Of a stretch of 64,000 bases of DNA, positions 1,263 to 22,022 are shown in pieces. A program made the position numbers and the translations under genes. Numbering within the stretch: the first letter of the stretch is position 1; the number at the start of each line of letters is the position of its first letter. A model generated the notes under the pieces. It did no database searches, was not told where the DNA came from, and saw only the letters and a program-made list of their open reading frames with translations. Origin of the DNA: a virus. The stretch is taken from IMG/VR virus record IMGVR_UViG_3300028840_006907, positions 128,001-192,000 of that record. The stretch is one strand, 5' to 3'.

Positions 1263-1263
1263 A

Positions 1264-1788: not shown

Positions 1789-1790
1789 AT

Positions 1791-1946
1791 ATGGGTAGAT
1801 ACGAGATAGCACTAGATAAGCAACCGAAGAGAGTTTTAAATTTGAATCATTTTAAACAACAAGCCCAAACTGTTATATCAAGCTGGCCTAAATGGAAAAG
1901 ACAGGGAGCGGGTAAAGAGGAAACAGCTCCAATTAAAAGAAAATGA
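1791..1946 (+). CDS. small protein, MGRY-IAL N-terminal motif family (short paralog 4, 51 aa)
   Basis: Translated by eye: MGRYEIALDKQPKRVLNLNHFKQQAQTVISSWPKWKRQGAGKEETAPIKRK; below the track length cut-off. Confidence 0.4.
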   Translation: MGRYEIALDKQPKRVLNLNHFKQQAQTVISSWPKWKRQGAGKEETAPIKRK

Positions 1947-1964
1947 GTTATTAAGGGATACAGT

Positions 1965-2318
1965 ATGAGTCGTTTTGATATTGCCTTGGGTAAAGAACTC
2001 CCAAAGGTAAAAAAGACCAAAAATTCTAAGAAAAGTAAGAAGGCTAAAAAGAAGGTTATTTCTCCGTATGATTTAAAGAGTAATGTAACTGTATTTACGA
2101 ATGCTCGTAAGATGTATGAGTTTATGGGTTTGGCAATAGGTTCTTGGCATCCTGTTATTTCTGACCCACCGGTGATTGGTTATCATAACCCGGCTTGGGA
2201 AGGGATCTCGGTTACAATTAGTGTTGAAGATTACAACAAAACAAAAAGTCCAATTAAGGGTATTAAGATGCCTGTTATGAGTCCTGTTGAAATTGTAGGA
2301 AATTTGTTTAGAAAATAA
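1965..2318 (+). CDS. small protein, MSRF-IAL N-terminal motif family (paralog 5)
   Basis: ORF track; N-terminus MSRFDIALGKE; EFM...SWHPV and YNKTK motifs. Confidence 0.5.
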   Translation: MSRFDIALGKELPKVKKTKNSKKSKKAKKKVISPYDLKSNVTVFTNARKMYEFMGLAIGSWHPVISDPPVIGYHNPAWEGISVTISVEDYNKTKSPIKGIKMPVMSPVEIVGNLFRK

Positions 2319-2420
2319 ATGGCAGTGTAGCATAGTAGATTAATGCATTCGGCTCATATCCGGGAGATCGGAGGTTTAATTCCTCTCACTGCCACCAATT
2401 TACATAAAGAAAGAAGTAGT

Positions 2421-2621
2421 ATGACATATGAATTAGAATTTGATCCTGAATATGAAGAACAAATTCGTGAGGCAGAATTACTTGCTAGTGATATATGCCC
2501 TACGTGCCTTGGTTCAGGTAAGGTCTATGGTAAATGGAATACAAAAAAACGGTGTACTGACTGTGATGGTACAGGAAAACACCCGGATAATCATAAAGAA
2601 GAAAAGGAGCTTCCTTATTAA
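2421..2621 (+). CDS. small zinc-finger protein (DnaJ-type CXXCXGXG repeats)
   Basis: CPTCLGSGK...CTDCDGTGK in translation; start placed at internal ATG 2421 behind AAGAAG. Confidence 0.4.
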   Translation: MTYELEFDPEYEEQIREAELLASDICPTCLGSGKVYGKWNTKKRCTDCDGTGKHPDNHKEEKELPY

Positions 2622-2900
2622 TGGCAACAAACAACCAGACTACAACGCGCTGGGATCCTAATGGTGAAATCGTGAAAAACTATGGTTGTTTGAGCGATTG
2701 TGACGGTGCGATAATCCGATGACGGTGGACTCCGTAGCTGAAGCTCCATATCAGCTTCTATGGGTAACAATGGAGATAACCCATAGCGCAGGGCTGTCAT
2801 AGCTTTAGAGTGTCATATAAGGAAGTATCCTTATATAAATTTATTAACCCTTTACAAAGGAGGTAGATATGCTATAACACAATAAACAAGGAGTTATAGT

Positions 2901-3137
2901 ATGTCTAGAAGTTACAGAAAGCCGTATGTAAAAGACGGCTATGGATCAAAGGGCAAAAGATTCATGAAGAATTATGCCAATCGGGTGGTAAGGCATTCTA
3001 AGGATGTTCCGAATGGCAGAGCCTATAAGAAATTATTTTGTTCTTATGATATTTGTGATTATTATTTCTACGTGGAAGTAAAGAGAAAGGATGATCCTTA
3101 TTTTGAACCAGAGTTCTGGAAATACGCCAGAAAATGA
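2901..3137 (+). CDS. hypothetical protein
   Basis: ORF track; GGAG upstream of ATG. Confidence 0.4.
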   Translation: MSRSYRKPYVKDGYGSKGKRFMKNYANRVVRHSKDVPNGRAYKKLFCSYDICDYYFYVEVKRKDDPYFEPEFWKYARK

Positions 3138-3162
3138 AATAAAAGTACAAGCTACAAGGATA

Positions 3163-3309
3163 ATGCAGGAATTACTTAAACGCATCTTAGACAATTCTGC
3201 AGAGGTAGGACGACCAGACCCAGACATAAGATATGGCTCTTCTCTTCATGTTTTAAGTAAATCCATTGGGCAAGTCATGGCGGAGGAATTGGAGAAATTG
3301 AAGAAATGA
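3163..3309 (+). CDS. hypothetical small protein
   Basis: ORF track frame 3091..3309 trimmed to ATG 3163 behind AAGGA. Confidence 0.3.
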   Translation: MQELLKRILDNSAEVGRPDPDIRYGSSLHVLSKSIGQVMAEELEKLKK

Positions 3310-3503
3310 AAGTTTCATTCCATTTTTTATGGTATGACTTCTGGGTCGGGTTCTTTTGGGATCAAAAGAAACGAATTTTGTACTTTTGCCCATTACCATG
3401 TGCCGTTATTAAAATGAAATTCAGGAAAAGGAAAATTGATAAAGGTTTTCGACATCCAAAATTAAGCTTCTTTTATAAAGTTTTTAAAGGGAAAAAAGAA
3501 TAA
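3306..3503 (+). CDS. hypothetical small protein
   Basis: ORF track only. Confidence 0.25.
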   Translation: MKVSFHFLWYDFWVGFFWDQKKRILYFCPLPCAVIKMKFRKRKIDKGFRHPKLSFFYKVFKGKKE

Positions 3504-3557
3504 CTATTTGTGCTGTAATAAAGATGGGATTTTAATTGTAGAAAAAGTTATAGGATT

Positions 3558-4142
3558 ATGATGAGTGAAGCTCGTAAAAGTTATGCTAAACGTTCATTTA
3601 TTATAGGTAAATTTAAATATATCTTTAAAATATATGTTACTGAAGAACTAATATTTTCATCAGAGGATCTATTCCCTTTAAGGGATAAGACTATGATAAC
3701 ATTTTTTAGAACGAATTCTTATATTGAAACAGCAAAACAAATGAATATCTCAATTCCTGAATTAAAGAAAAAGATCTTAAATACTATAGAATTACTTGGA
3801 GAAGTTAGATCATTCTATTTAACGAAAAAACTTGTTAGGCATAATAAAAAAAGTAAAGATTGTAATTTAGGAACTTATAGAACAAAAAGAATAAGAGTAA
3901 GTGAATATAAAAAACCATTAGTTGAAGAATTCAGATGTAATATTAAGAGGTATCAAAATATAATGGGTAAATTTTTGAGCCCTTTAAAAAAGGATGTTAT
4001 GGAATTAATATTGAAAAACGGCTCTTATTTAAAAACAGCTAAAAGATTGAATATAACACCCAAAAAAGTCAGAAATGAGCTTGTGGGAATAGTTAAATTA
4101 CTTAAAAAGGTGAAAAAGACTGATTGGATTATTCCATCATAG
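3558..4142 (+). CDS. putative DNA-binding protein with two HTH-like segments
   Basis: Two similar segments (TAKQMNISIPELKKKIL and TAKRLNITPKKVRNELV) resembling helix-turn-helix / sigma region-4-like motifs; ends TAG. Confidence 0.4.
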   Translation: MMSEARKSYAKRSFIIGKFKYIFKIYVTEELIFSSEDLFPLRDKTMITFFRTNSYIETAKQMNISIPELKKKILNTIELLGEVRSFYLTKKLVRHNKKSKDCNLGTYRTKRIRVSEYKKPLVEEFRCNIKRYQNIMGKFLSPLKKDVMELILKNGSYLKTAKRLNITPKKVRNELVGIVKLLKKVKKTDWIIPS

Positions 4143-4154
4143 AAAAGAGATATT

Positions 4155-4322
4155 ATGACCATATGTCCTTATTGTAATGAACAAAGAAGTTTAGAGCATG
4201 ATAATTCATGTGTTCTCTGGAAACGAAGAATATACATAGGTTTTACGAATGCCCTGATGTGCCTTTTCGGGATACTTTTAATATTTGGTCTAATGTTTCT
4301 TGTAATAAAGTATGGTTGAAAG
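4155..4322 (+). CDS. small membrane protein with CxxC motif (55 aa)
   Basis: Translated by eye: MTICPYCNEQRSLEHDNSCVLWKRRIYIGFTNALMCLFGILLIFGLMFLVIKYG; in frame with the upstream ORF across a TAG. Confidence 0.3.
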
Positions 4323-4328
4323 ATTTAT

Positions 4329-4410
4329 GGCCGAGTGGCAGAATTGGCAGACGCGCTAGATTTAGGATCTAGTTTCGAAAGAATTGGAGGTTCGATCCCT
4401 CTCTCGGCTA
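4329..4410 (+). tRNA. tRNA-Leu (anticodon TAG)
   Basis: Acceptor GGCCGAG/CTCGGCT, anticodon stem CTAGA/TCTAG with loop TTTAGGA, long variable arm, T-loop TTCGATC, A73; no encoded CCA. Confidence 0.8.
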
Positions 4411-4438
4411 TTTAAAGAATTCTTTAAAGGTAAATAAG

Positions 4439-4741
4439 ATGAGAACTTATGGACAAATAGTAGATGATGTAAAAAAGGTTTCAGGGCCTCAATTAGTGGC
4501 TTTGTTCTGCGTCATAGCAGGTGAGTGTATAAAAAAGAAATGTTTCAATCCTGGTGGGATGAAAACAACTATTGCCAGAATAGAAAACAGAATTGCTGAA
4601 GAAATGGGTAAAGAAGAACCTAAACCTAAGATAGCGGAATTAACGTGTGGAAGTTGTGGAGCCACTTACACTTTAGATACGAATTATATACATCGTACAT
4701 GTGGCTTACGGGGCTGTAAAGGTAAGTTACATAAATTATAA
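4439..4741 (+). CDS. hypothetical Cys-containing protein
   Basis: ORF track; CGSCG...C..C residues. Confidence 0.4.
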   Translation: MRTYGQIVDDVKKVSGPQLVALFCVIAGECIKKKCFNPGGMKTTIARIENRIAEEMGKEEPKPKIAELTCGSCGATYTLDTNYIHRTCGLRGCKGKLHKL

Positions 4742-4749
4742 ATAAAAAT

Positions 4750-4833
4750 GATCGGGTGGAGGAATTGGGATACTCAGCAAATTTAAGCTTTGCTGTCCTT
4801 TGTGACATGCGGGTTCGATTCCCGCCCCGATTA
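4750..4833 (+). tRNA. tRNA-Leu (anticodon TAA)
   Basis: Acceptor GATCGGG/CCCGATT, anticodon stem GCAAA/TTTGC with loop TTTAAGC, long variable arm, T-arm GCGGG-TTCGATT-CCCGC, A73. Confidence 0.75.
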
Positions 4834-4846
4834 TTATATAATAATT

Positions 4847-5323
4847 ATGGTTTACAAAAATTGTAGAACATACGGCCCTTATGAAGGTAAAGATGGTAGA
4901 CTAAGAGTATGTGTAGTTTACCCTGATTTGAGTAAAAGAACAGTATCATATCCTAAATATCTTATGGAGAAACATTTGAATAGATATTTAGAAAAGAATG
5001 AAACAATAGATCATAAAGATGAAAATCCTTTAAATAATAAATTAAGTAATTTGAATATTCTTATTAAAGGTGATCATTGCCGTAAACATGCTAAGAGATT
5101 GTTACCTAGAAGTTTTAGCTGCCCTCAATGTAAGAAACCGTTTGTTTTATCAGGACGAAGATTACATGATGCTATACAAAACAGAAAAAGAGGTAAAGTG
5201 GGTCCTTTTTGTAATAAAAGATGTGGGGGAATATACGGAACAGATGTTCAAAATAAAAGAATAGAAGTTTTAGATGTGATTCAAATACCTGTTGAATATG
5301 AGCCTAAAATAAAAGAGATATAG
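4847..5323 (+). CDS. HNH endonuclease
   Basis: DHKDENPLNNKLSNL...GDHCRKH motif; track ORF starts inside tRNA-Leu, so start moved to ATG 4847. Confidence 0.55.
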   Translation: MVYKNCRTYGPYEGKDGRLRVCVVYPDLSKRTVSYPKYLMEKHLNRYLEKNETIDHKDENPLNNKLSNLNILIKGDHCRKHAKRLLPRSFSCPQCKKPFVLSGRRLHDAIQNRKRGKVGPFCNKRCGGIYGTDVQNKRIEVLDVIQIPVEYEPKIKEI

Positions 5324-5325
5324 AC

Positions 5326-5637
5326 ATGAATTTATATTGTCCAAAATGCAAGGAGCGTCGTGTTGCCCAAGTAGGTGCAGGGGCTTCTATAATGGTAAAT
5401 GGTAAACCTGCTGATTATAGCATTTTAAAAGGAATTATGAGATGCGGTGAGTGTGGTAGCTCATTGGTAGCAGAAGAAGATTTAATAGAATACAATCCTC
5501 ATAAATGTTTACCTGTTGGGTTTTCTTTTTGTGAAGGGTTTTGTCCACAGAAGACAGAAGATGGTAAATGCGGGTTTGATAAGTATGAGTTGTTAAGTTG
5601 TCCTTATGATTTAGGTAATCGTAATTGTAATTGTTAA
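5326..5637 (+). CDS. Cys-rich zinc-ribbon protein
   Basis: CPKCK...CGECG...multiple Cys in translation. Confidence 0.4.
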   Translation: MNLYCPKCKERRVAQVGAGASIMVNGKPADYSILKGIMRCGECGSSLVAEEDLIEYNPHKCLPVGFSFCEGFCPQKTEDGKCGFDKYELLSCPYDLGNRNCNC

Positions 5638-5644
5638 TAAATAA

Positions 5645-5727
5645 GGCCGGATGTTGGAATTGGTATACAAGGACGGCTCAAACCCGTTCGCCTTTACGGT
5701 ATGGGAGTTCGATTCTCCCTCCGGCTA
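5645..5727 (+). tRNA. tRNA-Leu (anticodon CAA)
   Basis: Acceptor GGCCGGA/TCCGGCT, anticodon stem GACGG/CCGTT with loop CTCAAAC, long variable arm, T-arm GGGAG-TTCGATT-CTCCC. Confidence 0.8.
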
Positions 5728-5741
5728 AATAAAGGATTCTT

Positions 5742-6035
5742 ATGAATAAAAGGTGCTTTTATACGTCAATAGTGCAAAGCCGGTATCATATCAGAGGCAC
5801 TAAGCCACAGGAACCTTATATTCATTATATAGATCCTTATCTTCGGAAGGTATTGAGATATCCTCGGTGGTTAAGATCTGATCTTAAATTTGAAGTACAA
5901 GAGCCCGTTTTATCGAAAAAAGAATATTTAAAAATAAAAATGAAAATTATAGCTAAAATTGCAAAAAAAGCTACAGAGCAAATTCAAGCTGAAGAAGATA
6001 GACGCATTATCAAATTTTTAAAGAAAGTTGCATAA
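5742..6035 (+). CDS. hypothetical protein
   Basis: ORF track. Confidence 0.35.
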   Translation: MNKRCFYTSIVQSRYHIRGTKPQEPYIHYIDPYLRKVLRYPRWLRSDLKFEVQEPVLSKKEYLKIKMKIIAKIAKKATEQIQAEEDRRIIKFLKKVA

Positions 6036-6376
6036 TGGAAAATAAAGAAATTACTCTTAGGGAAATTGGTGAATTAGCCAATAAACTAGAAGATGAAATC
6101 GGAATAAATCTGGATGCTGTGATGAATAAGTTGACTCAGGAGGTTGGAGAGTTCAATGATGCCATCCAAAAGCACAGAGGTATTCACAGCCGGTCATGGG
6201 TACCTTTGGTTAAAGTGATAGATGAGCTAGGTGATGTCCTTGTGAATTTAATATCGATAGCTTATAGGCTTGAAATTAATCCAGATGCCTTTCCTGGTAT
6301 AGCTGAGAAGACTCTTAATAAGTTCAAAGAGCGTAAGAATGATTACATAGAAAATAAGGGGATTGATAATGTATAG
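6035..6376 (+). CDS. MazG-like nucleotide pyrophosphohydrolase
   Basis: LTQEVGEFNDAI and ELGDVLVNLISIAYRL resemble the MazG/HisE all-alpha NTP-PPase EExxE/D motifs. Confidence 0.5.
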   Translation: MENKEITLREIGELANKLEDEIGINLDAVMNKLTQEVGEFNDAIQKHRGIHSRSWVPLVKVIDELGDVLVNLISIAYRLEINPDAFPGIAEKTLNKFKERKNDYIENKGIDNV

Positions 6377-6557
6377 TTCGATTCAAACTGATTTAGTGAC
6401 CAGACGTGTCCTTATAAATGATTATGAGGTAAAGGATTATGAGGGAATTGTAAGAGCCGTCTTTCATGATGGTAAATATTTAAAAGCCATAGTGGAAAAA
6501 GAAGGTGGTGAATTAGAACAGTGTAATGTTGTAGAGATGAAAATTATTAGAAAATAA
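6363..6557 (+). CDS. hypothetical small protein
   Basis: ORF track; overlaps upstream stop. Confidence 0.3.
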   Translation: MIMYSSIQTDLVTRRVLINDYEVKDYEGIVRAVFHDGKYLKAIVEKEGGELEQCNVVEMKIIRK

Positions 6558-6563
6558 ATATAC

Positions 6564-6642
6564 GCCCTGTTAGCTCAGTTGGATCTAGAGCAAGGCCCTT
6601 CTAAGGCTTAGGTCGGGGGTTCGAGTCCCTCACAGGGTGCCA
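6564..6642 (+). tRNA. tRNA-Arg (anticodon TCT)
   Basis: Acceptor GCCCTGT/ACAGGGT, D-stem GCTC/GAGC, anticodon stem AGGCC/GGCTT with loop CTTCTAA, T-loop TTCGAGT, encoded GCCA. Confidence 0.8.
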
Positions 6643-6867
6643 TTTTAATAATGCTCTAATAGCGCATTTTTAATAAATGCGAATGGAGGATTATTATGGA
6701 CGAGAACAAGAAGCATTTAATTGAAATGGCTACACTTAAGTACGGAGAAATTTATCCCACTAGTGAATGTAATTCCCTCTTAGAATGATTTACTGTAGTG
6801 GGAGGTAAGTTGTACCTCTGGTTTAATTTAAAGGATGGGAATACAAGAGTCCTGTCACGGGAGATAA

Positions 6868-7443
6868 ATGATGGGGATAAGGATTGATATTGAACATGTC
6901 CGGAAGATCCAGGAAGAACGGAAAAGAATTAATTCTATACCATTAGAACAAATTGAATGGTACGAAGATGGGATAAAATTGGAAATTCATCCCGATTTAA
7001 TAAGAGAATTTTTATTTACAGGATTAGATAATACTGACTTCATAATAAGTGAAATGTACAAAGATAAAGGTCCTTACAGAGTTTTTAAAGATTCTGAATG
7101 TGGTAGATTATTTGATGAGAAGCAAATTGTCGGGCAGAAAATGTGCTATTTAGGTGATGTTGGTTGTGGCTCAACCGGTATAGGACCTAGACCTATATTT
7201 GTTGATGCTGAAGAGTTTGTGAAAAGAGTAAGTACTTTACGATCAGAAGGTATGACAAAAGAACAGTGTAAAGAGTTTGTCTTTAAGAAACTGGAAAAGA
7301 AAGGGTGTGGTTATAATTTTAGTGGATCCTGGATTGAATGGGATAGTCTTATAGAAGCAGTTTTCGGTAATTTAGAAACTGATAACACGAATCCAGTTGT
7401 CCGGAACGTAATTGAAATAATGAAACGTGATAAGTCCCTGTAG
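6868..7443 (+). CDS. hypothetical protein
   Basis: ORF track; stop TAG overlaps the start of tRNA-Arg(CCT). Confidence 0.4.
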   Translation: MMGIRIDIEHVRKIQEERKRINSIPLEQIEWYEDGIKLEIHPDLIREFLFTGLDNTDFIISEMYKDKGPYRVFKDSECGRLFDEKQIVGQKMCYLGDVGCGSTGIGPRPIFVDAEEFVKRVSTLRSEGMTKEQCKEFVFKKLEKKGCGYNFSGSWIEWDSLIEAVFGNLETDNTNPVVRNVIEIMKRDKSL

Positions 7444-7509
7444 TTCAACAGGATAGAACATAGGTTTCCTAAACCTAGTATTGGGGTTCGAGTCCCTACA
7501 GGGATACCA
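7434..7509 (+). tRNA. tRNA-Arg (anticodon CCT)
   Basis: Acceptor GTCCCTG/CAGGGAT, D-stem GTTC/GAAC, anticodon stem TAGGT/ACCTA with loop TTCCTAA, T-loop TTCGAGT, encoded CCA. Confidence 0.8.
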
Positions 7510-14401: not shown

Positions 14402-15571
14402 TTATCCAAAATTAGACTTTCGGGTCAGAGGTATCTTTTTTGCAGTATCCGCAAATAGTTTTAACCCTTTCCATGAATCAATGTGGTAGGAAGTAATATA
14501 AGGTGCCTTAGGAGGTGGGCAACCACAATGCCCGTTAACTCTAACTGATCTTTTACCCTCTTTATTGGCATACATCTCCTTAGCATCTTTTAAAGGCATA
14601 TTCCCATCGACCATCCAGTAAGTCCATGCTCTTTCAAAGGTGAAACCCGGGAGTTCTCCAGAGATAGAGAAAGGAACTTCTCCGTCACCTTTTTTAGATA
14701 CAATATCAATACCGGCTAGATCAAGTTCAAGTCTGATGTAATGATCACAAGCTACCTCTCCAGCAAGATTCCCCATTGTATAACTTTCTCCATTATTGGC
14801 TAGATGCGTTTCGCATTTCTTTTTGATTTTTTTCTGATAACATTCTTCGTGGAAATATTTCCATTTTTCATAAAGAACTTCATCATTTTCTTCAATGACA
14901 TAATTTTCATCTATATTTTTTCTGCCATTTTTGTTTTTCTCATAACCATATTCTTTATCAATAGTCAGGTCAATGAGCCCCCTATTGAAAATAGTATGAT
15001 GAAATATATAGACAGTATTTTTGTCTGTGTTTCGAAGCTCTTTTTCAATTTCTGTTAAAGTTTTCCCGACGTATTTGGAGTTTATCTCAAATTGGTTAGA
15101 GTACCGTAATCTTTTGGTTTTATGGCAATACTCTACTTCCCATCCTTTATTACAGTGGGAACATTTTACATAAGCGGGAGGTAAATCATTGCCCATTGAG
15201 AATGAGATACTTATAGGATACGGCCTTTTGTTTTTTGCCCAATCAAAATCTTCTGCATCCATCTCTTCTCGGGTTAATATATTAGGGATATTTTCTTTAC
15301 TCCATCTTTCAATAAAATCCCAAAATTCTGTCTTTGTAAAAACTTTTCCTACAGGAAAATTGAAAATTTTCTCTACCGGAATAAAACCTGTCGCAGTACC
15401 TAAATTACCACACGTATCGAGATAATATCGACCTAAGACATAATATTCGTATAGTCTTTCATCACGTTTGTAACCTGCTTCGTGTCTTTCATTGATCATT
15501 TCCCAAAATGTGTTGTAAGATTTAAGTGACTTTTCGATTCCTTTAATTGTGTTATAGTCTTGTTTTTTCAT
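14402..15571 (-). CDS. hypothetical protein (389 aa)
   Basis: Long uninterrupted ORF in the track. Confidence 0.5.
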   Translation of the reverse strand: MKKQDYNTIKGIEKSLKSYNTFWEMINERHEAGYKRDERLYEYYVLGRYYLDTCGNLGTATGFIPVEKIFNFPVGKVFTKTEFWDFIERWSKENIPNILTREEMDAEDFDWAKNKRPYPISISFSMGNDLPPAYVKCSHCNKGWEVEYCHKTKRLRYSNQFEINSKYVGKTLTEIEKELRNTDKNTVYIFHHTIFNRGLIDLTIDKEYGYEKNKNGRKNIDENYVIEENDEVLYEKWKYFHEECYQKKIKKKCETHLANNGESYTMGNLAGEVACDHYIRLELDLAGIDIVSKKGDGEVPFSISGELPGFTFERAWTYWMVDGNMPLKDAKEMYANKEGKRSVRVNGHCGCPPPKAPYITSYHIDSWKGLKLFADTAKKIPLTRKSNFG

Positions 15572-16599
15572 TTTACCACATGTTTAGAAGTGATTGTTTC
15601 TGCGAATTCTGGCCCCCTATCATAGTCATCAATCCATATGTTATCACAGTGCCGATTTCCTTTTTTCTCACTGCCGTACCATTGTGTCCTCCAATGTGCC
15701 TCAACTCTTATCTTATGATCCAGTTTCCATTTTCCGACACCTCCAGCTTGTTTGATACGAGTTATATCGTTATTCTTATCCTTTATATTTGAACCAACAA
15801 TAATAAATCTTTTGTTGGTAGCTTTTTCTTTCCTTTGTTCCAGTTTTCTTTTCTTGGTTTTATTTTTAATATTTTTTAATCTTGCATCAAAATCTAGTGG
15901 ATCATGGTTTTTTAAATCAGGTTTTTTGCTTGTGATATATAAAAGAGTGTTAAATACAAATTTTGCGAATTCTTCTAAATGATCAACATTTTTATATAAA
16001 TCATATTTATCTACTTCTTCCTTTTTTCTTTTTGTCTCATTTTCAATATAAATCTTTAATTGATCCTGAATTTTTCCAGGTTGCATTTCTATGTGGAAAT
16101 AAAAGGTGGTATCATTAAATGGTATGTCTGGTGTAGGTTTTAATAATGAACATGCCATTACTCTAATATGCTTTTCAGTATTGAAATCTCGAAGATAAAC
16201 GTAAAAACCATTTACAGGATGTTTACTTCCATCTATATCATTTATAGAAAAAAGACCTGGATCTATCTGTATAAAAATTTCTCTAAACGGGGATCTTAAG
16301 AAATAAGCATCAGTATTACAATTTGTTTGGGCTAGTCTTGCTGAAAGTTCTGGTGTTATATAGTATATCTGATCAGCATTATTTTTCATTTGATACATAT
16401 GAAAATATGTATTGTAAAAATGACTTATTCTTGCTGGTGAATCAAATTCAGTAAAAATAGAAGAAGTAGCATTACAAAATTGTTTGAATGTAGGATCAAA
16501 ACCAATATCGAGCATATTTTGTACTAGTATAGTTGGGGCTACTGTCTCTAGATGTTTAATAGCCAGTTCATAATGAGTTTTTGTGAAATACTTCTCCAT
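15568..16599 (-). CDS. hypothetical protein (343 aa)
   Basis: Long uninterrupted ORF; ATGA overlap with downstream gene. Confidence 0.5.
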   Translation of the reverse strand: MEKYFTKTHYELAIKHLETVAPTILVQNMLDIGFDPTFKQFCNATSSIFTEFDSPARISHFYNTYFHMYQMKNNADQIYYITPELSARLAQTNCNTDAYFLRSPFREIFIQIDPGLFSINDIDGSKHPVNGFYVYLRDFNTEKHIRVMACSLLKPTPDIPFNDTTFYFHIEMQPGKIQDQLKIYIENETKRKKEEVDKYDLYKNVDHLEEFAKFVFNTLLYITSKKPDLKNHDPLDFDARLKNIKNKTKKRKLEQRKEKATNKRFIIVGSNIKDKNNDITRIKQAGGVGKWKLDHKIRVEAHWRTQWYGSEKKGNRHCDNIWIDDYDRGPEFAETITSKHVVK

Positions 16600-16763
16600 A
16601 ATAATTATACAAAGTTTATAAGGTGTTTCAATAAGAAAAAAATGATTTAATTTCTATTTAATCGTTTAATCAGCGATTATCTATTAATATAATTACCGTA
16701 TATAGAAAGTAATGTACTATAAAAATAAAGTGAAATACCATAAAAGCAAACAGAAATGATAAA

Positions 16764-17390
16764 ATGATTGAGACACTTTTTTATTTTTGCTATTATTCTT
16801 ATTTACTAGGTGACTTAAAAAGTACTGAGATGTACTATTCTCTATTGAGAAAAGAATTCAAAGAACATGGCCGAAAAGATTCATTAGAATCTCACCAATA
16901 CCGAGAATTGAAAAAAGTTAAAGATGCTCTTGATTCTGGAACCATATCCAAGAAGGAATGGGTAGCTGATAAAGTTATTGTACCCAAGATTAATTCAGAG
17001 ATAAAAATAAAACAAGATGAATTGGTCCGGAAGATCCATATGGAGGGGCTAGAACAGCTTAAAGTTATCTTGGATGATTGTGTGCAGATATATAATATTG
17101 AGCATCCTTGTGGCTCCTACGGGGCTGTAGATATGGTTTATAAAGGATTGAATACGATCTATCCGGTGGAAGTGAAACGAAGTCGGGGAGAACATGATTT
17201 AATTGGACAAATAGGAAAGTATGATTTATATCATCGTTTAAGGCTCCATTACAAACATTATAAACATGTTCAACCGGTAACGATATGTCATTCTTATCAG
17301 AAATTTGCTTTAAATGAGTTAAGACAAATGAGGGTTTTGACCTTAATTTATACCATAATTAATAAGAAAATTACTCTAAATGTAATATAA
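16764..17390 (+). CDS. hypothetical protein
   Basis: ORF track; first + strand gene after the divergent intergenic region 16600-16763. Confidence 0.4.
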   Translation: MIETLFYFCYYSYLLGDLKSTEMYYSLLRKEFKEHGRKDSLESHQYRELKKVKDALDSGTISKKEWVADKVIVPKINSEIKIKQDELVRKIHMEGLEQLKVILDDCVQIYNIEHPCGSYGAVDMVYKGLNTIYPVEVKRSRGEHDLIGQIGKYDLYHRLRLHYKHYKHVQPVTICHSYQKFALNELRQMRVLTLIYTIINKKITLNVI

Positions 17391-17487
17391 ATTACTTTTC
17401 TATTGACTTTAAGATCATTTAGGGGTATATTTAAATTAAATTACCTTTTGTTAGAAAACGATAATTTCTAAAGAGTGTGTCAAAGAA

Positions 17488-17565
17488 ATGCTGAGAATGA
17501 CTTTTAATAGTAACCCAAATCCACAACCAAAGAATTTGCTATTCGTTGGGGTTGTTATGATATAG
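17488..17565 (+). CDS. small peptide ORF (25 aa), copy A of a repeated peptide-plus-hairpin unit
   Basis: Translated by eye: MLRMTFNSNPNPQPKNLLFVGVVMI; similar to the peptide at 18036..18110. Confidence 0.25.
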   Translation: MLRMTFNSNPNPQPKNLLFVGVVMI

Positions 17566-17589
17566 TCATAATCTCTACCTTGGATCAGG

Positions 17590-17629
17590 AAAAGCCCCGG
17601 CAAATGAGAGTTCTCCGGGGCTTTTCTTA
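17590..17629 (+). terminator. terminator-like hairpin with conserved loop AATGAGAGTTC (copy A)
   Basis: Stem AAAAGCCCCGG / CCGGGGCTTTT, 14 nt loop CAAATGAGAGTTCT, then T-rich tail. Confidence 0.45.
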
Positions 17630-17646
17630 TTTAATAATGTACTAAT

Positions 17647-17979
17647 ATGAAATTCGGTTCTATCACAGGTTTTTATAAGGGAAGGATAGAACTTATGAAT
17701 AAAGTATCTTGGGATGAGTATAATAGTATGGTAAATTCAGCAATTGATAGTGGGTATCCTTATGCTAGTGGTATTTTAATAGCTGAATTAGAATCCATAG
17801 CTAAGAATCTAACTCATCAAAATAAAAAGATAGAGGAAACATTAGTAAAAGAAGATAAGGATAAATTGGAAATTAGATTGGAATCAGTAAAGTCATGGAA
17901 TAAAGATACTATTGAGGGTATCGAAAGAGCTATTAAAAAAGCTGATGAAGCAGTAAAAAAATTAAGTGTTGACATTTAA
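17647..17979 (+). CDS. hypothetical protein
   Basis: ORF track. Confidence 0.4.
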   Translation: MKFGSITGFYKGRIELMNKVSWDEYNSMVNSAIDSGYPYASGILIAELESIAKNLTHQNKKIEETLVKEDKDKLEIRLESVKSWNKDTIEGIERAIKKADEAVKKLSVDI

Positions 17980-18035
17980 TACAATTTGTGGTATCTTTAA
18001 ATTTACATAGTTTTTATTATAAGGAAAGTTTTAAA

Positions 18036-18110
18036 ATGTTGTTTACAAAAATACTCAATAATAACCCGCAACCTAATCAACCAACGAATATTTATTTGTC
18101 GGGGGCCTGA
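18036..18110 (+). CDS. small peptide ORF (24 aa), copy B of the repeated unit
   Basis: Translated by eye: MLFTKILNNNPQPNQPTNIYLSGA; AAGGAAAG upstream. Confidence 0.25.
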   Translation: MLFTKILNNNPQPNQPTNIYLSGA

Positions 18111-18140
18111 GTATTGTCCAAAAGTTAAACTGAAATCACA

Positions 18141-18175
18141 ACCCCCGGCGAATGAGAGTTCACCGGGGGTTTTTA
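18141..18175 (+). terminator. terminator-like hairpin with conserved loop AATGAGAGTTC (copy B)
   Basis: Stem ACCCCCGG / CCGGGGGT, loop CGAATGAGAGTTCA, then TTTTT. Confidence 0.45.
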
Positions 18176-18179
18176 TTTT

Positions 18180-18255
18180 TGGGATGTCGCCTAACGGTAT
18201 GGCACCTGACTCTGGCTCAGGAATAATCAGGGTTCAAGTCCTTGCATCCCAGCCA
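18180..18255 (+). tRNA. tRNA-Gln (anticodon CTG)
   Basis: Acceptor TGGGATG/CATCCCA with U1-A72 (typical of bacterial tRNA-Gln), anticodon stem CCTGA/TCAGG with loop CTCTGGC, T-loop TTCAAGT, encoded GCCA. Confidence 0.75.
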
Positions 18256-18279
18256 ATTAACTTTAGGAAACAACAATAA

Positions 18280-18353
18280 CGGGGTGTGGCCTAGTCTGGT
18301 AAGGCGTCTGCTTCGGGAGTAGAAAATCGGAGGTTCAAATCCTCTCATCCCGA
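18280..18353 (+). tRNA. tRNA-Pro (anticodon CGG)
   Basis: Acceptor CGGGGTG/CATCCCG with C1-G72, D-stem GCCT/AGGC, anticodon stem TCTGC/GTAGA with loop TTCGGGA, T-loop TTCAAAT. Confidence 0.75.
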
Positions 18354-18371
18354 TTAATAAAGGTAAAAATT

Positions 18372-18926
18372 ATGAGACCCATGATATATCCTAAAAAGAA
18401 TAGGAAAATAAAAAGACCACGAAGATCGAGACCATTAAAAAGATGTGTTCATATTGATGGAAAAGAATGGAGGTGGGAAACAACAGGTCACTGGGATAGT
18501 GATGCAGGTAGTTATGGTTGTTTAACTGATCAGAGCGTTAAAATACTTTCTCCTGATAATAAATTTTTTTCTATACGTGCTCATGAAGTAATGAAATGTG
18601 AACCGATAAGATGGGAATGTTGTGTTGGTGAAAAATTAATAACAGTTTTACCGGGGAAAGTAAAACAGTATATAATAGATAATTTAATTGATCATGATAT
18701 TTCAAGATCGTTAAGGAGACGCATTCATATAGATGGTAGAGAATGGGGTTGGCAGTTTAGTAAAGGAAATCCTGCATATCAGCTCTGTGGAGTATCTGTC
18801 CGTTCTCCTGATAATCGGTATTTATGGATTTATGCAAAAGAGTTAGGATACGAGATTAAACCATCAGTAATTAAAAAGTATATAATTGATAATTTATTAT
18901 ATCGGGGTATAGCGCAGCCTGGTTAG
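18372..18926 (+). CDS. hypothetical protein with internal tandem duplication
   Basis: Two repeated halves (HIDGKEWRWETTGHW...SPDNKFFSIRAHEV / HIDGREWGWQFSKGN...SPDNRYLWIYAKEL; KQYIIDNLIDH / KKYIIDNLLYR); 3' end overlaps tRNA-Pro(GGG). Confidence 0.4.
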   Translation: MRPMIYPKKNRKIKRPRRSRPLKRCVHIDGKEWRWETTGHWDSDAGSYGCLTDQSVKILSPDNKFFSIRAHEVMKCEPIRWECCVGEKLITVLPGKVKQYIIDNLIDHDISRSLRRRIHIDGREWGWQFSKGNPAYQLCGVSVRSPDNRYLWIYAKELGYEIKPSVIKKYIIDNLLYRGIAQPG

Positions 18927-18980
18927 CGCGTCTGAATGGGGTTCAGAAGGTCGCCAGTTCAACTCTGGCTACCCCGACCA
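18903..18980 (+). tRNA. tRNA-Pro (anticodon GGG)
   Basis: Acceptor CGGGGTA/TACCCCG, D-stem GCGC/GCGC, anticodon stem TCTGA/TCAGA with loop ATGGGGT, T-arm GCCAG-TTCAACT-CTGGC, encoded ACCA. Confidence 0.8.
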
Positions 18981-19008
18981 AAGTTCTTTGAAAATTATGG
19001 GGGTGTGG

Positions 19009-19274
19009 CAGAAGGGATATGCAGTCCTCAAAAAGTAGACAGGTCTGGGTAAAACCGGGTCATTACAGGAAGTTTGTATTCGCTACTGAAACGAAACAAA
19101 GGGAAGGTAGTGTAACGCTTACGGACTGGTGCTTGCAAGGGTTTACGGAAGACACTGACACGTTGCCTGGGATCTGGAGACAGCCCAGGAGGGTTTGTAA
19201 ATAACGGCAGGAAGTCCTTTTTCCCAATAGTGAGCTTTGGATGACTTATGCCGGTTCGAATCCGGTCACCTCCA
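19009..19274 (+). ncRNA. tRNA-Ala-like element with about 190 nt insertion (interrupted tRNA or other tRNA-like RNA; identity unresolved)
   Basis: 3' end is a canonical T-arm GCCGG-TTCGAAT-CCGGT followed by CACCTCC-A; the only complementary 5' strand is GGGGGTG at 19009, giving a 7 bp acceptor helix with a G3-U70 wobble (the tRNA-Ala/tmRNA identity pair); no group I motifs and no tag-like ORF inside. Confidence 0.3.
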
Positions 19275-19360
19275 TCAAAATAAATTAAATAGATAGATAG
19301 GCAAACTGGCAAGCCATTTGGTTGTAATAGAAAATGTGTAGCAAGATCATAAAGACATAC

Positions 19361-19632
19361 TGGAGTGTAGCTCAGTGGCAGAGCGGGTGGCTGTCTTGGT
19401 TGGCAGCTCTTATAGGAAACTGTAAGATGAAAACTCGGTGAATTCAGGGAAACCTAAGTCTTAAACAGATATGGCAATCCTGAGCGAAGCCTTGAGAAAG
19501 GAACGTGCAGAGACTTATAGCGCCGAGCACCTAAGGTGAAAACTATGGTGATGAGATAGTCCAGGCCCTTGGGAAATCAGGGGAATTACTGTAACCACTT
19601 GGTCGGGGGTTCAAATCCCTCCACTCCAGCCA
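19361..19632 (+). tRNA. tRNA-Asn (anticodon GTT), interrupted by a group I intron in the anticodon loop
   Basis: Exons join to TGGAGTG-TA-GCTC-AGTGGCA-GAGC-G-GGTGG-CTGTTAA-CCACT-TGGTC-GGGGG-TTCAAAT-CCCTC-CACTCCA-G-CCA; U1-A72 and loop CUGUUAA match E. coli tRNA-Asn. Confidence 0.7.
19395..19591 (+). ncRNA. group I self-splicing intron (in tRNA-Asn anticodon loop, between positions 35 and 36)
   Basis: Contains group I core motifs TCAGGGAAACC, GGCAATCCTGAGC, GTGCAGAGACT (R-like) and GAGATAGTCC (S-like); 5' exon ends in U paired to G in putative guide GCAGC (P1 GCTGT/GCAGC); intron ends in G. Confidence 0.65.
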
Positions 19633-19683
19633 ATTTTAAAGGGTCCTAGAGGAATTTACTTTAAAGAAAAGGAGAAAAATTAA

Positions 19684-19884
19684 ATGAGTAAAGATGAGAA
19701 ACCTGATTATTCGAAAGATTTCGATACATGTCCTTGGTGTAATAAAATACCAAAAGTATCGAAACATTTCAGATATGATGAATGGCAACTGATCCATCGT
19801 TGTGATAAATTACTTACTGTAATTAGTATGGATTGGACTGAATTAGATAGTCTTAAAAATCGATGGAATCGACCTAAGAAATGA
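19684..19884 (+). CDS. hypothetical small protein
   Basis: ORF track; AAGGAGAAAAA upstream; CPWCNK in translation. Confidence 0.4.
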   Translation: MSKDEKPDYSKDFDTCPWCNKIPKVSKHFRYDEWQLIHRCDKLLTVISMDWTELDSLKNRWNRPKK

Positions 19885-20156
19885 CAGAATGTACTATATG
19901 TGAAAGAGAAACTCCTGAGAAATATGTGGAGAAACATCACTTGACTCCTTGTAGCCGAGGAGGAAAGGATAAGGAGAAAACACTTACTTGTATTGATTGC
20001 GGAGATCAGGTACATCGATTATTTACGAATAAAGAATTGGAGAGAGACTATTATACACTCGAAAAATTATTAGCTCATCCTAAAATCCAGAAATGGAAGA
20101 AATGGGTTAAGAATAAGAGATTCGGGATATGTATGAAACGAAAAAAGAAGAGATAA
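19881..20156 (+). CDS. zinc-binding small protein
   Basis: ORF track; CTICERE...CIDCGDQVH; ATGA overlap with upstream gene. Confidence 0.4.
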   Translation: MTECTICERETPEKYVEKHHLTPCSRGGKDKEKTLTCIDCGDQVHRLFTNKELERDYYTLEKLLAHPKIQKWKKWVKNKRFGICMKRKKKR

Positions 20157-20163
20157 TATATAA

Positions 20164-20239
20164 CGGGCGGTCGCCTAATCTGGTATGGCACCACATTTGG
20201 GATGTGGAATAACTGGAAGTTCAAATCTTCTCCGCCCGA
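20164..20239 (+). tRNA. tRNA-Pro (anticodon TGG)
   Basis: Acceptor CGGGCGG/CCGCCCG with C1-G72, anticodon stem CCACA/TGTGG with loop TTTGGGA, T-arm GGAAG-TTCAAAT-CTTCT, A73; variable region slightly long. Confidence 0.65.
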
Positions 20240-20263
20240 TATATTTTTAAATCAATAAGTTAC

Positions 20264-20339
20264 TGGGATGTAGTTCAGTTGAAAGAACACCGGAATTTGG
20301 ATCCGGGGGTCGCAGGTTTGAGCCCTGCCATCCCAGCCA
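20264..20339 (+). tRNA. tRNA-Gln (anticodon TTG)
   Basis: Acceptor TGGGATG/CATCCCA with U1-A72, D-stem GTTC/GAAC, anticodon stem CCGGA/TCCGG with loop ATTTGGA, T-arm GCAGG-TTTGAGC-CCTGC, encoded GCCA. Confidence 0.8.
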
Positions 20340-20537
20340 TTTAATTTTTTTATCAATATATTTACCACAAAGACGTATATTATTTATACAACTTAAAAAT
20401 AGGAATAATATATGACATAGATAAAAATACCACCCTAGATCCTCAAAATATTCAAACCTCCTTAAAACACGGTTATTATACCAAATGGTGTTATACCAAA
20501 CAGTACAATATTCATTCATTTAAACAGGAGAATAACC

Positions 20538-20837
20538 GTGATCAAAAATAGAAAATTTTTAAAATTTGAATTAAAATTAGAAGCTCAAAAATTACGAAAA
20601 ATCAAGACTGATATTAAAACCAAGCAGAGAGCTGGCCAGTATGCCGGTCATGAACAGTCCGAATTATTGACTCTTAAATGGAATTACCGCCATCGATTTA
20701 TTGCTTATTGTATGATGCGGGGTAGAGAATATAAGCAAATCGAAAGAACATGTAGAGTTGAACCAAATCATGACTGGGTAAAGGAGATCATCAATGAATA
20801 CTCCCCGCAAAAAGAAACTATACGTGCTTCTGCGTAA
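20538..20837 (+). CDS. hypothetical protein
   Basis: ORF track; AGGAGAA upstream; GTG start. Confidence 0.35.
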   Translation: MIKNRKFLKFELKLEAQKLRKIKTDIKTKQRAGQYAGHEQSELLTLKWNYRHRFIAYCMMRGREYKQIERTCRVEPNHDWVKEIINEYSPQKETIRASA

Positions 20838-21108
20838 AGATTTGGATGAAACTTATCGATGTGTTCAAGGAGGCCATGCTATTGCTGAGTATTCTCTAAA
20901 GGATTACCAGTCATTTAAAGAATGGGCAAATGGAACTCTGATTTATCTTGGAGTACCTGATTTAAAAGCTTTGGAATTATGGTTGCTCAAATTGGAACGG
21001 AAAAATATTTTTCATATCAGGTTTCATGAACCCGATCTTGGGAATGAGTTAACATCGGTAGCTTGTATAAATACAGGGAAAATTTTTAAAAGTCTTCCTC
21101 TTGCTTAA
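20794..21108 (+). CDS. PTH2-family peptidyl-tRNA hydrolase-like protein
   Basis: LYVLLRKDL...QGGHAIAEY...IYLGVPDLKAL...TGKI lines up with the PTH2 pattern (VLVVRxDL...QxxHA...kvvlKv....L......G......DAG.T.i..G..T.lgiGP). Confidence 0.5.
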   Translation: MNTPRKKKLYVLLRKDLDETYRCVQGGHAIAEYSLKDYQSFKEWANGTLIYLGVPDLKALELWLLKLERKNIFHIRFHEPDLGNELTSVACINTGKIFKSLPLA

Positions 21109-21115
21109 AGTTACA

Positions 21116-21189
21116 GCGCCTGAGGCTCTGAGGTGAGCAACTTGGACTCTAAATCCAAGTTTTTCAGGGTTCGACTCCCTACAGGCGCA
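21116..21189 (+). tRNA. putative amber suppressor tRNA (anticodon CTA)
   Basis: Acceptor GCGCCTG/CAGGCGC, A73, D-stem GCTC/GAGC, anticodon arm ACTTGGA-CTCTAAA-TCCAAGT (loop has U33, CUA, A37), T-loop TTCGACT; non-canonical 7 bp anticodon stem or 3 nt D/anticodon linker and short D-loop. Confidence 0.5.
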
Positions 21190-21287
21190 TTATAACTATA
21201 ATCTTTCCAACATTTTAAATTTTTAGTTATCACAATCATCTCTCAATCTTGTATAATATATAAGGGAAAAATTTAAGGAGATATAAA

Positions 21288-22022
21288 GTGATAATAATTT
21301 CTAAATTCCATGATTATTACGATAGTGGAATGACATATGGTATTGATAAAGAATTGAGGTTTATAAGAAAAACTGAAAAAATAGATAAACAATTGGAGAT
21401 ACCTGAAAAGATTACTGAATTAATGAAAGATTTGCCTAAGGTTTATGATTATTATAGAAGTCAACAATTTACAGCTCAACCTTTTATAATAATTTTCTGT
21501 GGTCAGGTTCATCTGGGGTATCATTTTTTTAATTTGAAAGATCCTAAGGATAAGAACTATTATGTGCGTCATACAGATCCAGATATCTATACATATGATT
21601 TGCCTTCAGTAGAAAAAGTGATTCAGAAATACGAACCGGAGATGTTCAAAACGTTTCGTAATAAAGATACACTCTTTCACCGTATCCTACCTTCATTCAA
21701 ATATGACGTTCTGGAAAGAGCATTCAAAAAATTCGAAGACAAGAAAATGGATGTCGGGATTCATCTGGATGAAGAATCCCCGATCCTATATCTTGGATAT
21801 GATGACAGAGATTTTATTTACATAAAGAATCCTGTTCTTCGGAAACTTCAATTTTTTAAAAAGGTTAATTCATTTACAGCTTTCCAGAATATCTCAATGT
21901 TTATAGGAGGAATTTGTAGCAAGACTTTCCCTCCCACCGTGGAACTCAGTGAAAAAGACAGAATCGGAAAACAAGGATTTGACAAGTGGTCTTTCAGAAA
22001 GAAGGGGGAAAATTCAAAATGA
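21288..22022 (+). CDS. hypothetical protein (244 aa)
   Basis: ORF track; AAGGAGA upstream of GTG. Confidence 0.45.
   Translation: MIIISKFHDYYDSGMTYGIDKELRFIRKTEKIDKQLEIPEKITELMKDLPKVYDYYRSQQFTAQPFIIIFCGQVHLGYHFFNLKDPKDKNYYVRHTDPDIYTYDLPSVEKVIQKYEPEMFKTFRNKDTLFHRILPSFKYDVLERAFKKFEDKKMDVGIHLDEESPILYLGYDDRDFIYIKNPVLRKLQFFKKVNSFTAFQNISMFIGGICSKTFPPTVELSEKDRIGKQGFDKWSFRKKGENSK

Follow-up and report, generated by a model that had tools for sequence, protein, structure and literature searches.

A putative leader-peptide attenuator rich in asparagine, proline and glutamine codons precedes the matching tRNA genes in a clade of huge phages

A stretch of 64,000 nucleotides (nt) from a metagenomic virus (IMG/VR record IMGVR_UViG_3300028840_006907, positions 128,001 to 192,000; hereafter the window, 33% GC, standard genetic code) carries two copies of a small unit in which a short open reading frame (ORF) rich in codons for asparagine (Asn, N), proline (Pro, P) and glutamine (Gln, Q) is followed by a GC-rich hairpin. 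The second copy ends directly in front of a cluster of phage tRNA genes for the same three amino acids. Each unit is probably a ribosome-mediated transcription attenuator of the trp/his/thr type, in which Asn, Pro and Gln codons would control the phage genes for tRNA-Gln, tRNA-Pro and tRNA-Asn. It also seems reasonably likely that a whole clade of huge phages carries such a sensor of decoding capacity, with an N/P/Q leader that would open a terminator in front of the phage's own Gln, Pro and Asn tRNA genes. The parts of the unit, its alternative pairings and their conservation, and the match in identity between leader codons and tRNAs can be read directly from the DNA. From the letters alone, the first-pass annotation of the window had favoured a functional RNA element over a plain terminator and had named an attenuator, a protein-binding site and a processing signal as options; the competing pairings and the codon-tRNA match described below support the attenuator among these. 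That annotation had overlooked the most telling context, the cluster of Gln, Pro and Asn tRNA genes that begins next to unit 2.

Leader units and the tRNA genes they precede

Both units lie on the + strand, unit 1 at about 17403-17632 and unit 2 at about 17969-18179, and they are paralogous, with a mean column identity of 78% when aligned over about 230 nt from promoter to U-run. They share one layout: a promoter, a 5' untranslated region (UTR), an ORF of 24-25 codons, a GC hairpin, and a U-run (Table 1). The two small-peptide ORFs described by the first-pass annotation are exactly where it placed them, and both units exist, but the spans it gave were too short, as each unit begins upstream at a sigma-70-like promoter. 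Together with six homologues from five other metagenomic phage genomes, the two units form a family of eight distinct sequences from one phage clade. All eight leader ORFs start with ATG and comprise 22-25 codons. A promoter of the form TTGAC[AT]-17-TA[TG]NTT is located 31-81 nt 5' of the leader ATG in all seven units that have upstream sequence, and a purine-rich patch resembling a Shine-Dalgarno sequence, weak in unit 1, lies 6-12 nt 5' of the ATG.

The cores of the leader peptides are dominated by N, P and Q. In four cores, these residues make up 8/10, 10/11, 10/11, and 12/13 positions (80-92%) vs. a background of 0.118, which corresponds to binomial P values from 1e-6 to 8e-11 (1e-6 and 5e-9 for the window units). 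Ranked by N+P+Q density among the 816 window ORFs of at least 20 amino acids (aa), unit 2 comes first and unit 1 second. The core of unit 2 uses CCG, CCT, and CCA for Pro and CAA twice for Gln, and the leaders of the homologues L058 and L067 contain every synonymous codon for the three amino acids (four for Pro, two each for Gln and Asn). CCG, a rare codon, accounts for 6 of 27 leader Pro codons (22%) vs. 9% in the long ORFs of the window.

The downstream tRNA genes have the same three identities. In the window, the cluster runs in the order Q, P, P, N (interrupted by an intron), P, Q, and every decoding tRNA in it is Asn, Pro or Gln. In unit 2, the last base of the U-run is 18179 and the first base of tRNA-Gln is 18180; in all seven units that adjoin a tRNA, the distance from the end of the U-run to tRNA-Gln is 0-4 nt, which leaves no room for a separate tRNA promoter. 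Clusters restricted to Gln, Pro and Asn tRNAs are found downstream in six genomes (Table 1); by chance, the three specificities of a cluster would equal the three residues enriched in the leader in about 1 of 1140 cases. The phage has 21 other tRNAs called by ARAGORN, all located elsewhere: 14 are in L063, and Ser, Met, three Leu, and two Arg tRNAs lie at window positions 117-7509. These 21 read Gly, Val, Thr, Phe, Ile, Leu, Lys, Ser, Cys, His, Met, and Arg.

When seven leaders are aligned codon by codon, the cores are all N, P or Q, and all insertions and deletions comprise whole codons. Variable core sites fall mostly on third codon positions (third 7, first 2, second 2), and the changes at first and second positions are interchanges of N and P. 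Within the P-Q-P-N-Q-P block (columns 11-18), five of five variable sites are synonymous. The C-terminal part of the leader has 4, 5, and 4 variable sites at the three codon positions and thus no codon-position bias. In units 1 and 2, conservation of the 3' half of the ORF is at the DNA level, although the reading frames differ owing to a 1-nt insertion or deletion, which is a signature of constraint at the RNA level.

The leader might instead sense general translation capacity, through proline bond formation, elongation factor P (EF-P) or the ribosomes left after host shut-off, and not specific tRNAs; any global slowdown of translation would then turn on the tRNA cluster. Pro is the most constant core residue and is spaced as P-x-P-x-x-P, proline is described in a passage of PMC8129111 as intrinsically slow in peptide-bond formation, and an identical RNA switch would serve such a sensor equally well. 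However, this explanation does not account for the Asn and Gln codons that occupy the remaining core positions in eight of eight leaders, nor for a cluster of exactly Asn, Pro, and Gln tRNAs, and the cores do not contain consecutive Pro-Pro codons, the strongest EF-P-dependent stall motif. We therefore consider a general sensor unlikely and favour a leader that would respond to the three tRNAs encoded behind it.

The family is narrowly distributed. A metagenome scan for CCGGNNAATGAGAGTTNNCCGG returned 33 loci, 32 of which are chance matches in GC-rich coding DNA and one of which is a true homologue (L012). The other five homologues (L058, L071, L067, L073, and L072) were reached via the family of ORF184, a protein encoded in the tRNA cluster; L068-L070 score identically to L067. 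A covariance model of the eight units, run over 186 kb, identified no copies beyond the eight distinct units. A locus with the same loop that scores 43 bits with this model (L023) was rejected, as it is a plain terminator after fabH on a 1-Mb bacterial contig. In IMG/VR, scans for three DNA patterns and for two flanking proteins yielded only one chance coding match (L006), and a scan of a collection of bacterial and archaeal genomes gave 18 matches, all of them chance, hence no host-encoded copy. The window belongs to a metagenomic contig of 388,651 bp (JGI 3300017963 Ga0180437_10000019). This phage has no close relatives among deposited phages; a query of INPHARED genomes with positions 16700-21300 produced matches to the group I intron and to tRNAs and to nothing else.

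Competing RNA pairings in the leader

The hairpins of both units carry the same sequence AATGAGAGTTC (17603-17613 and 18151-18161), which the first-pass annotation had singled out as a conserved loop. It is not an open loop of 11 nt: the 14 nt between the CCGG arms fold as GAAU/GUUC with 3-4 base pairs (bp) and a GAGA tetraloop cap. Similarly, the stems, which had been taken to differ in sequence between the copies, have a GC core changed by a single base pair (G-C to C-G) plus an A-U extension. The pattern CCCGG-N14-CCGGG occurs twice in the window vs. 0 expected from shuffles. A search of the rest of the window for the loop motif yielded five more near-matches (28258, 30086 and others); these are chance matches, because they lie inside coding sequence and lack a hairpin, and there is no further copy in the window.

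Across the family, the hairpin has a predicted energy of -19 to -25 kcal/mol and is followed by a U-run. In the eight aligned sequences, 96% of cells in the terminator are paired, with two covarying pairs; slid partners reach at most 66%, and the score beats all 500 shuffles. The apical stem and its GNRA loop are kept as well: L058 has GAGC-GAAA-GUUC, and L072 has an extra U-A pair closing GAAA.

When folding is performed with the 3' arm of the terminator not yet transcribed, its 5' arm and "loop" pair with the 3' half of the ORF. In the numbering customary for attenuators, this is a 2:3 antiterminator, in which region 2 is the 3' half of the ORF and region 3 the 5' arm with the "loop", and the terminator is 3:4. 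In unit 1, positions 17592-17614 belong both to the terminator and to the 3' strand of the antiterminator. In a third pairing (1:2), the 5' portion of the ORF, with the first Asn-Pro codons in it, is paired to region 2 and to the stop-codon region; in unit 1, region 2 pairs in this way with region 1 at 17493-17516. A mutually exclusive 2:3 antiterminator that uses the 5' arm of the terminator is predicted in silico in all units once region 1 is masked.

The 2:3 duplex has calculated energies of -21.6 (unit 1), -28.5 (unit 2), -30.2, and -16.1 kcal/mol (L058), and shuffled sequences give about -10 to -13 kcal/mol. Three of these four units are better than their shuffles at P <=0.002, and none of 2000 shuffles of unit 2 is as good as the native sequence. 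Over all eight sequences, 83% of cells in the antiterminator are paired (slid partners, at most 55%) and 89% in the 1:2 helix, which consists of ACUCA:UGAGU plus CCC:GGG (slid partners, at most 48%), a contrast that is inflated by the use of a single one of these sequences to derive the structures. The stop codon lies within the 1:2 helix, 3-8 nt past region 2.

Individual substitutions are compatible with the pairings. In L071, GAAA in place of GAGA together with a U in region 2 gives a perfect 19-bp antiterminator. A G-to-A change in L067 and L073 loses one terminator pair, makes a neighbouring pair, and converts a G.U of the antiterminator to A-U. Changes in the 2:3 and 1:2 helices are mostly one-sided, with U or C opposite G, and are statistically weak; one-sided changes are expected because the partner strand serves two helices. 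The loop itself appears to be conserved mainly because two pairings use it, as the 3' strand of the antiterminator and as the GNRA-capped apical stem, and it does not act as a free loop for recognition.

We modelled the ribosome crudely, as a 30-nt footprint on chosen codons. With the footprint at the first Pro codon and region 4, the 3' arm of the terminator, absent, the antiterminator is the minimum-energy fold in four of four units tested. With the footprint at the stop codon, the antiterminator disappears from the folds, and only the terminator can form.

A plain intrinsic terminator does not fit: a GC-rich hairpin and a U-run are present, but the hairpin is located directly 5' of tRNA genes and has a conserved competing helix. 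The GNRA-capped apical hairpin could be a protein site at which an antitermination factor, in the manner of lambda N at boxB, or a processing enzyme decides between read-through and cleavage. Its stem and tetraloop are kept by compensating changes (L058 and L072), and boxB is likewise a short hairpin with a GNRA-like loop. However, the conserved GUUC is already accounted for by competing pairings, with the GAAU of the loop or the GAAU of region 2, no candidate factor was identified, and a protein site would not explain why there is an N/P/Q ORF or why its stop codon lies within the 1:2 helix. We give this explanation little credence.

Similarly improbable, in our assessment, is that the units are independent small genes, each encoding a small RNA or a 24-aa NPQP peptide, starting at its own promoter and ending in an ordinary terminator, with the tRNAs made by constitutive leak-through or from transcripts that start far upstream; the N/P/Q match would then be a coincidence or reflect some function of the peptide. 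Units of about 200 nt from promoter to terminator do resemble small-RNA genes, the tRNA region of phage T4 has stable small RNAs, and a neighbouring unit of promoter, small ORF, and terminator (L063 5889-6160) has no cognate tRNA match. In addition, the counterpart of unit 1 in L071 (1811-1950) has a homologous promoter and 5' UTR but another terminator (GAGCUC stem) and no N/P/Q ORF; accordingly, either unit 1 arose recently by duplication or conversion, or the L071 copy arose by deletion. Against independent genes stand the specificity match, which is expected about once in 1140 and is seen in six genomes, a 3' half of the leader that is kept as RNA and not as peptide, the complementarity of this half to the 5' arm and loop of the terminator, which goes well beyond shuffles, and a terminator that always adjoins a tRNA. 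Taken together, the exclusive N/P/Q match in six genomes and the conserved alternative pairing are accounted for by none of these alternatives to attenuation.

Table 1. Predicted features of the two units and the N/P/Q tRNA cluster in the window, and leaders and tRNA clusters of the six homologues
Feature	Position	Strand	Basis and remarks
Unit 1 promoter, TTGACT-17 nt-TATATT	17403..17431	+	Consensus scan; 10/12 matches, sigma-70-like
Unit 1 leader ORF, MLRMTFNSNPNPQPKNLLFVGVVMI	17488..17565	+	ORF list; 25 codons, TAG stop; core NSNPNPQPKN at 17506-17535
Unit 1 region 2, AGAAUUU..UAUU.GUUGGGGUU	17531..17553	+	Constrained folds; antiterminator 5' strand, partner AGCCCCGGCAAAUGAGAGUUCU
Unit 1 terminator	17587..17632	+	Folding; hairpin -24.6 kcal/mol; 5' arm 17587-17600, GAGA-capped apical stem 17601-17614, 3' arm 17615-17628, U-rich tail
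94-aa ORF	17695..17979	+	110 aa if the start is 17647; between the units, with the unit 2 promoter in its 3' end
Unit 2 promoter, TTGACA-17 nt-TATCTT	17969..17997	+	Consensus scan; TG ahead of the -10 hexamer
Unit 2 leader ORF, MLFTKILNNNPQPNQPTNIYLSGA	18036..18110	+	ORF list; 24 codons, TGA stop; core NNNPQPNQPTN at 18057-18089
Unit 2 region 1, AAUACUCA plus CCCG	18050..18068	+	Folds; pairs with 18100-18103 and 18108-18115 (stop codon included)
Unit 2 region 2, GAAUAUUUAUUUGUCGGGGG	18086..18105	+	Antiterminator 5' strand; 19/20 positions pair with 18142-18161 (CCCCCGGCGAAUGAGAGUUC)
Unit 2 terminator, stem AACCCCCGG / CCGGGGGUU	18140..18179	+	Hairpin -21.9 kcal/mol; C/A mismatch, GAAU-GAGA-GUUC apical hairpin, then UUUAUUUU; tRNA-Gln begins at the following base
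tRNA-Gln(CUG)	18180-18255	+	ARAGORN, Rfam; first gene reached by read-through
tRNA-Pro(CGG)	18280-18353	+	ARAGORN, Rfam
tRNA-Pro(GGG)	18903..18980	+	ARAGORN
tRNA-Asn(GUU)	19361..19632	+	Group I intron of 197 nt in the anticodon loop (19395-19591); Rfam Intron_gpI, 92.8 bits
tRNA-Pro(UGG)	20164-20239	+	ARAGORN, Rfam
tRNA-Gln(UUG)	20264-20339	+	ARAGORN, Rfam; end of the N/P/Q cluster
L012 leader, MFLRMLNNPNQPNQPRNYHSLGA			tRNAs Q, N, P, Q
L058 leader, MLMTKLNPNNPQPNQPRNNYSLGA			tRNAs Q, P, N, N and a fifth at the contig end, Pro(GGG) by eye (no ARAGORN call)
L071 leader, MLFLKILNNNPQPNNQPWNFHSLGA			tRNAs Q, P, N, P, Q
L067 leader, MLFTKLNPNNPQPNQPRNNYSLGT			tRNAs Q, P, P, P, N, N, P, Q
L073 leader, MFLKMLNPNNPQPNQPRNFNSLGA			tRNAs Q, P, P, P (contig ends)
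L072 leader, MLIKMLNNPQPNNQPRITSLGA			tRNAs Q, P, P, N, N, P, Q

Candidate attenuation mechanism and related systems

The units have the hallmarks of a leader-peptide attenuator, namely a promoter-near ORF, cognate codons, a terminator, a 2:3 pairing, and a 1:2 pairing with the stop codon placed accordingly. Translation of the ORF, stalling, and regulated read-through are predicted from these parts, and we propose that they would operate as follows. A host-type promoter would start the transcript, and a ribosome would load onto the leader ORF of 22-25 codons. If Asn-, Pro-, and Gln-tRNAs are plentiful, the ribosome would reach the stop codon and cover region 2 (GAAU..UAUUYGUYGGGG), so that the 3:4 terminator (CCCCGG..CCGGGG plus U-run) forms and transcription halts a few bases before tRNA-Gln. 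Without translation, region 1, which covers the first codons of the N/P/Q run and those immediately ahead of them, would pair with region 2, and the terminator would again form. If N/P/Q codons are decoded slowly, the ribosome would stall on region 1 and free region 2, which would pair over 10-19 bp with the 5' arm and "loop" of the terminator; no terminator would then form, and the polymerase would enter the tRNA cluster. The net effect would be that Gln, Pro, and Asn tRNAs are made only when the infected cell reads these codons too slowly. Since the molecules sensed would be those that the controlled genes encode, the circuit would act as direct negative feedback on the supply of tRNAs.

Unit 1 would be an additional, lineage-specific copy placed before the 94-aa ORF, which runs into unit 2, so that two attenuators would act in series. 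This ORF is the only gene directly 3' of unit 1. It has no homologues in a word-index search, and L071 encodes a 103-aa counterpart at the equivalent place.

Several observations weigh against attenuation, in addition to the inflated contrast with slid partners and the L071 counterpart of unit 1 that has no N/P/Q ORF. The entire case is built from sequence. The 2:3 duplex of L058 is no better than shuffles (P = 0.14), and the middle of the extended antiterminator is lost in L058, L067, and L072, which leaves a core of 9-11 bp and a distal segment of 4 bp. Covariation of the 2:3 and 1:2 helices is weak, as most changes are one-sided, if compatible with pairing. With the ribosome footprint at the last Pro codon, region 1 of L012 and L058 re-pairs behind the ribosome in the folds, so clean antitermination would require the ribosome to stall near the beginning of the N/P/Q run. 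The Shine-Dalgarno sequence of unit 1 is poor, and what follows this unit is a protein gene rather than a tRNA. No cognate leaders were found before the other tRNA groups of the phage (Gly/Val/Thr, Phe/Ile, Lys/Ser, Leu, Arg, and others), and the arrangement is therefore not a general design. Finally, attenuation leaves unexplained why Asn, Pro, and Gln in particular were chosen.

The general logic of leader-peptide attenuation in amino-acid operons is outlined in a part of PMC1183508. The thrL (Thr and Ile), ilvL (Ile/Leu/Val), trpL, hisL, pheL, and leuL leaders resemble the phage units in having a promoter-proximal ORF of about 14-32 codons with regulatory codons, in their 1:2, 2:3, and 3:4 structures, and in a terminator before the first regulated gene, and leaders of the thrL/ilvL type likewise sense several amino acids at once. 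They differ in their targets: amino-acid-operon attenuators control biosynthetic enzymes, whereas the phage units would control tRNA genes, so that the loop would close on the sensed molecule. The first genes behind the phage leader are tRNA-Gln and tRNA-Pro and not the usual targets, enzymes of amino-acid biosynthesis or aminoacylation. The units are, in addition, encoded by phages and share no sequence homology with these leaders. None of the Rfam leader families matches the units at its gathering threshold. His_leader (RF00514) and Thr_leader (RF00506) score 16-27 bits vs. gathering thresholds of 49-55, on both strands, and since sub-threshold matches to His_leader, NsiR1, and rimP also occur on both strands, they are driven by the symmetric hairpin only.

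Other systems share single aspects of the proposed switch. In pheM-pheST, a leader peptide controls phenylalanyl-tRNA synthetase, and thus, as in the phage, a decoding component for the sensed amino acid and not its biosynthesis; it differs in having a synthetase as its target, in sensing a single amino acid, and in being chromosomal. The E. coli tRNA-Phe genes pheU and pheV proved wrong as an attenuator precedent, as the tRNA follows the promoter almost at once, without a leader. Salmonella mgtL and mgtP are leader ORFs of mgtA and mgtCBR with Pro codons that respond to Pro-tRNA supply. They are similar in that the spacing of Pro codons couples the progress of the ribosome to the downstream RNA fold, but they govern Mg2+ transport and virulence genes, have no Asn or Gln codons, and have no tie to tRNA genes. 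T-box riboswitches, too, are terminator/antiterminator leaders that report tRNA status for related genes; however, they bind uncharged tRNA without translation and have a T-box sequence and a specifier loop, whereas the phage element would rely on its ORF. Rfam T-box models have no match in 17380-18200, even at E values up to 10. The tRNA region of phage T4 encodes small stable RNAs, species 1 and 2, which by their description are similar, as they too are transcripts of 100-200 nt that come from a phage tRNA cluster and are not tRNAs; however, they arise by processing of the tRNA precursor, and neither a leader ORF nor a terminator switch is known for them.

Full-text literature searches that combined attenuation or leader peptides with tRNA genes or operons of phages or bacteria gave no relevant result. 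The element thus appears to match a known class of attenuators in structure and to be new in what it would control, namely tRNA genes. Phage tRNAs are common and are usually taken to be constitutive passengers of early or middle transcripts, and the control of their expression is largely unknown. If the proposed mechanism is correct, these would be the first tRNA genes under leader-peptide attenuation and the first evidence of a virus regulating tRNA supply through direct feedback, and leader-peptide attenuation would extend from amino-acid supply to tRNA supply. Such control could compensate for a mismatch in codon usage, for decay of host tRNAs, or for tRNA-cleaving defence nucleases, and it raises the question of what stress in the host would affect the tRNAs for Asn, Pro, and Gln in particular. 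At about 180 nt, the element is small as well as self-contained, and it could be reused as a codon-specific sensor of translation speed.

Neighbouring features of the tRNA region

ARAGORN did not detect the tRNA-Asn(GUU) gene of the window in its unspliced form but called tRNA-Asn(gtt) once the exons had been joined. The gene is uninterrupted in the relatives L071, L067, L072, and L058. Past the split gene are a 66-aa ORF and an HNH-type ORF (19684-19884 and 19881-20156), which may encode a homing endonuclease.

Just past the N/P/Q cluster, at 21116-21189, lies a tRNA with anticodon CUA, an amber-suppressor type labelled tRNA-Pyl by ARAGORN. TAG is nevertheless a normal stop in 13 of 87 long window ORFs, and reading it as sense merges no genes. 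Recoding of stop codons, considered in view of the TAG stop of unit 1, was rejected, as all three stops are in normal use (TAA 54, TGA 20, and TAG 13 in window ORFs of at least 100 aa). In total, at least 27 tRNAs called by ARAGORN are spread over about 30 kb (window 1-21200 and L063 1-10000), which approaches a complete decoding set. Further tRNA-like sequences were seen by eye, for example at L063 9180-9366, where they look like Tyr and Ser.

A conserved RNA of about 280 nt (18999-19277) is always located between tRNA-Pro(GGG) and tRNA-Asn and has 85% identity in three genomes. Further copies are at L067 8530-8832 and L072 2010-2310, and the start of a copy is at L062 440-500. Its ends are tRNA-like, with a 7-bp acceptor stem including G3.U70, a D-arm-like 5' part, and a T-arm. 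With the Rfam model for transfer-messenger RNA (tmRNA), it scores no more than 11 bits, and ARAGORN does not call a tmRNA here; the RNA may be tmRNA-like but divergent, or it may be a tRNA that carries a large insert not yet recognised.

ORF184 (18372-18926; homologues P0002-P0017) has an internal repeat, HIDGxEWxW..ILSPDN..VLPGKVKQYIIDNL, and no Pfam domain. Members of its family are found only inside phage tRNA clusters, usually between tRNA-Gln and tRNA-Pro genes. In L073, the N/P/Q tRNA cluster also contains a homologue of ribosomal protein L7/L12 (3727-4092; Pfam Ribosomal_L12), which, being downstream of the putative attenuator, would be co-regulated with the tRNAs.

Upstream of the units are three further features. 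The L063 unit mentioned above (5889-6165), which lies about 3.6-3.8 kb before the first base of the window, has a strong promoter, a 44-aa ORF, and a very strong terminator (AAAAAAGCCCCCGCCCG..CGGGGGCUUUUUU); it precedes an ORF and tRNA-Phe and tRNA-Ile, and its peptide has no obvious match to these tRNAs. At window 6696-6890, a short ORF stops at an in-frame TGA, beyond which about 35 more codons follow without a stop (..LLE*FTVVGGKLYLWFNLKDG..); read-through, recoding, or simply two adjacent frames could account for this. On the minus strand at 15568-16599, a 343-aa ORF carries an AcrVA2-like domain according to precomputed Pfam annotation, and this gene is syntenic in L073 and probably in L071.

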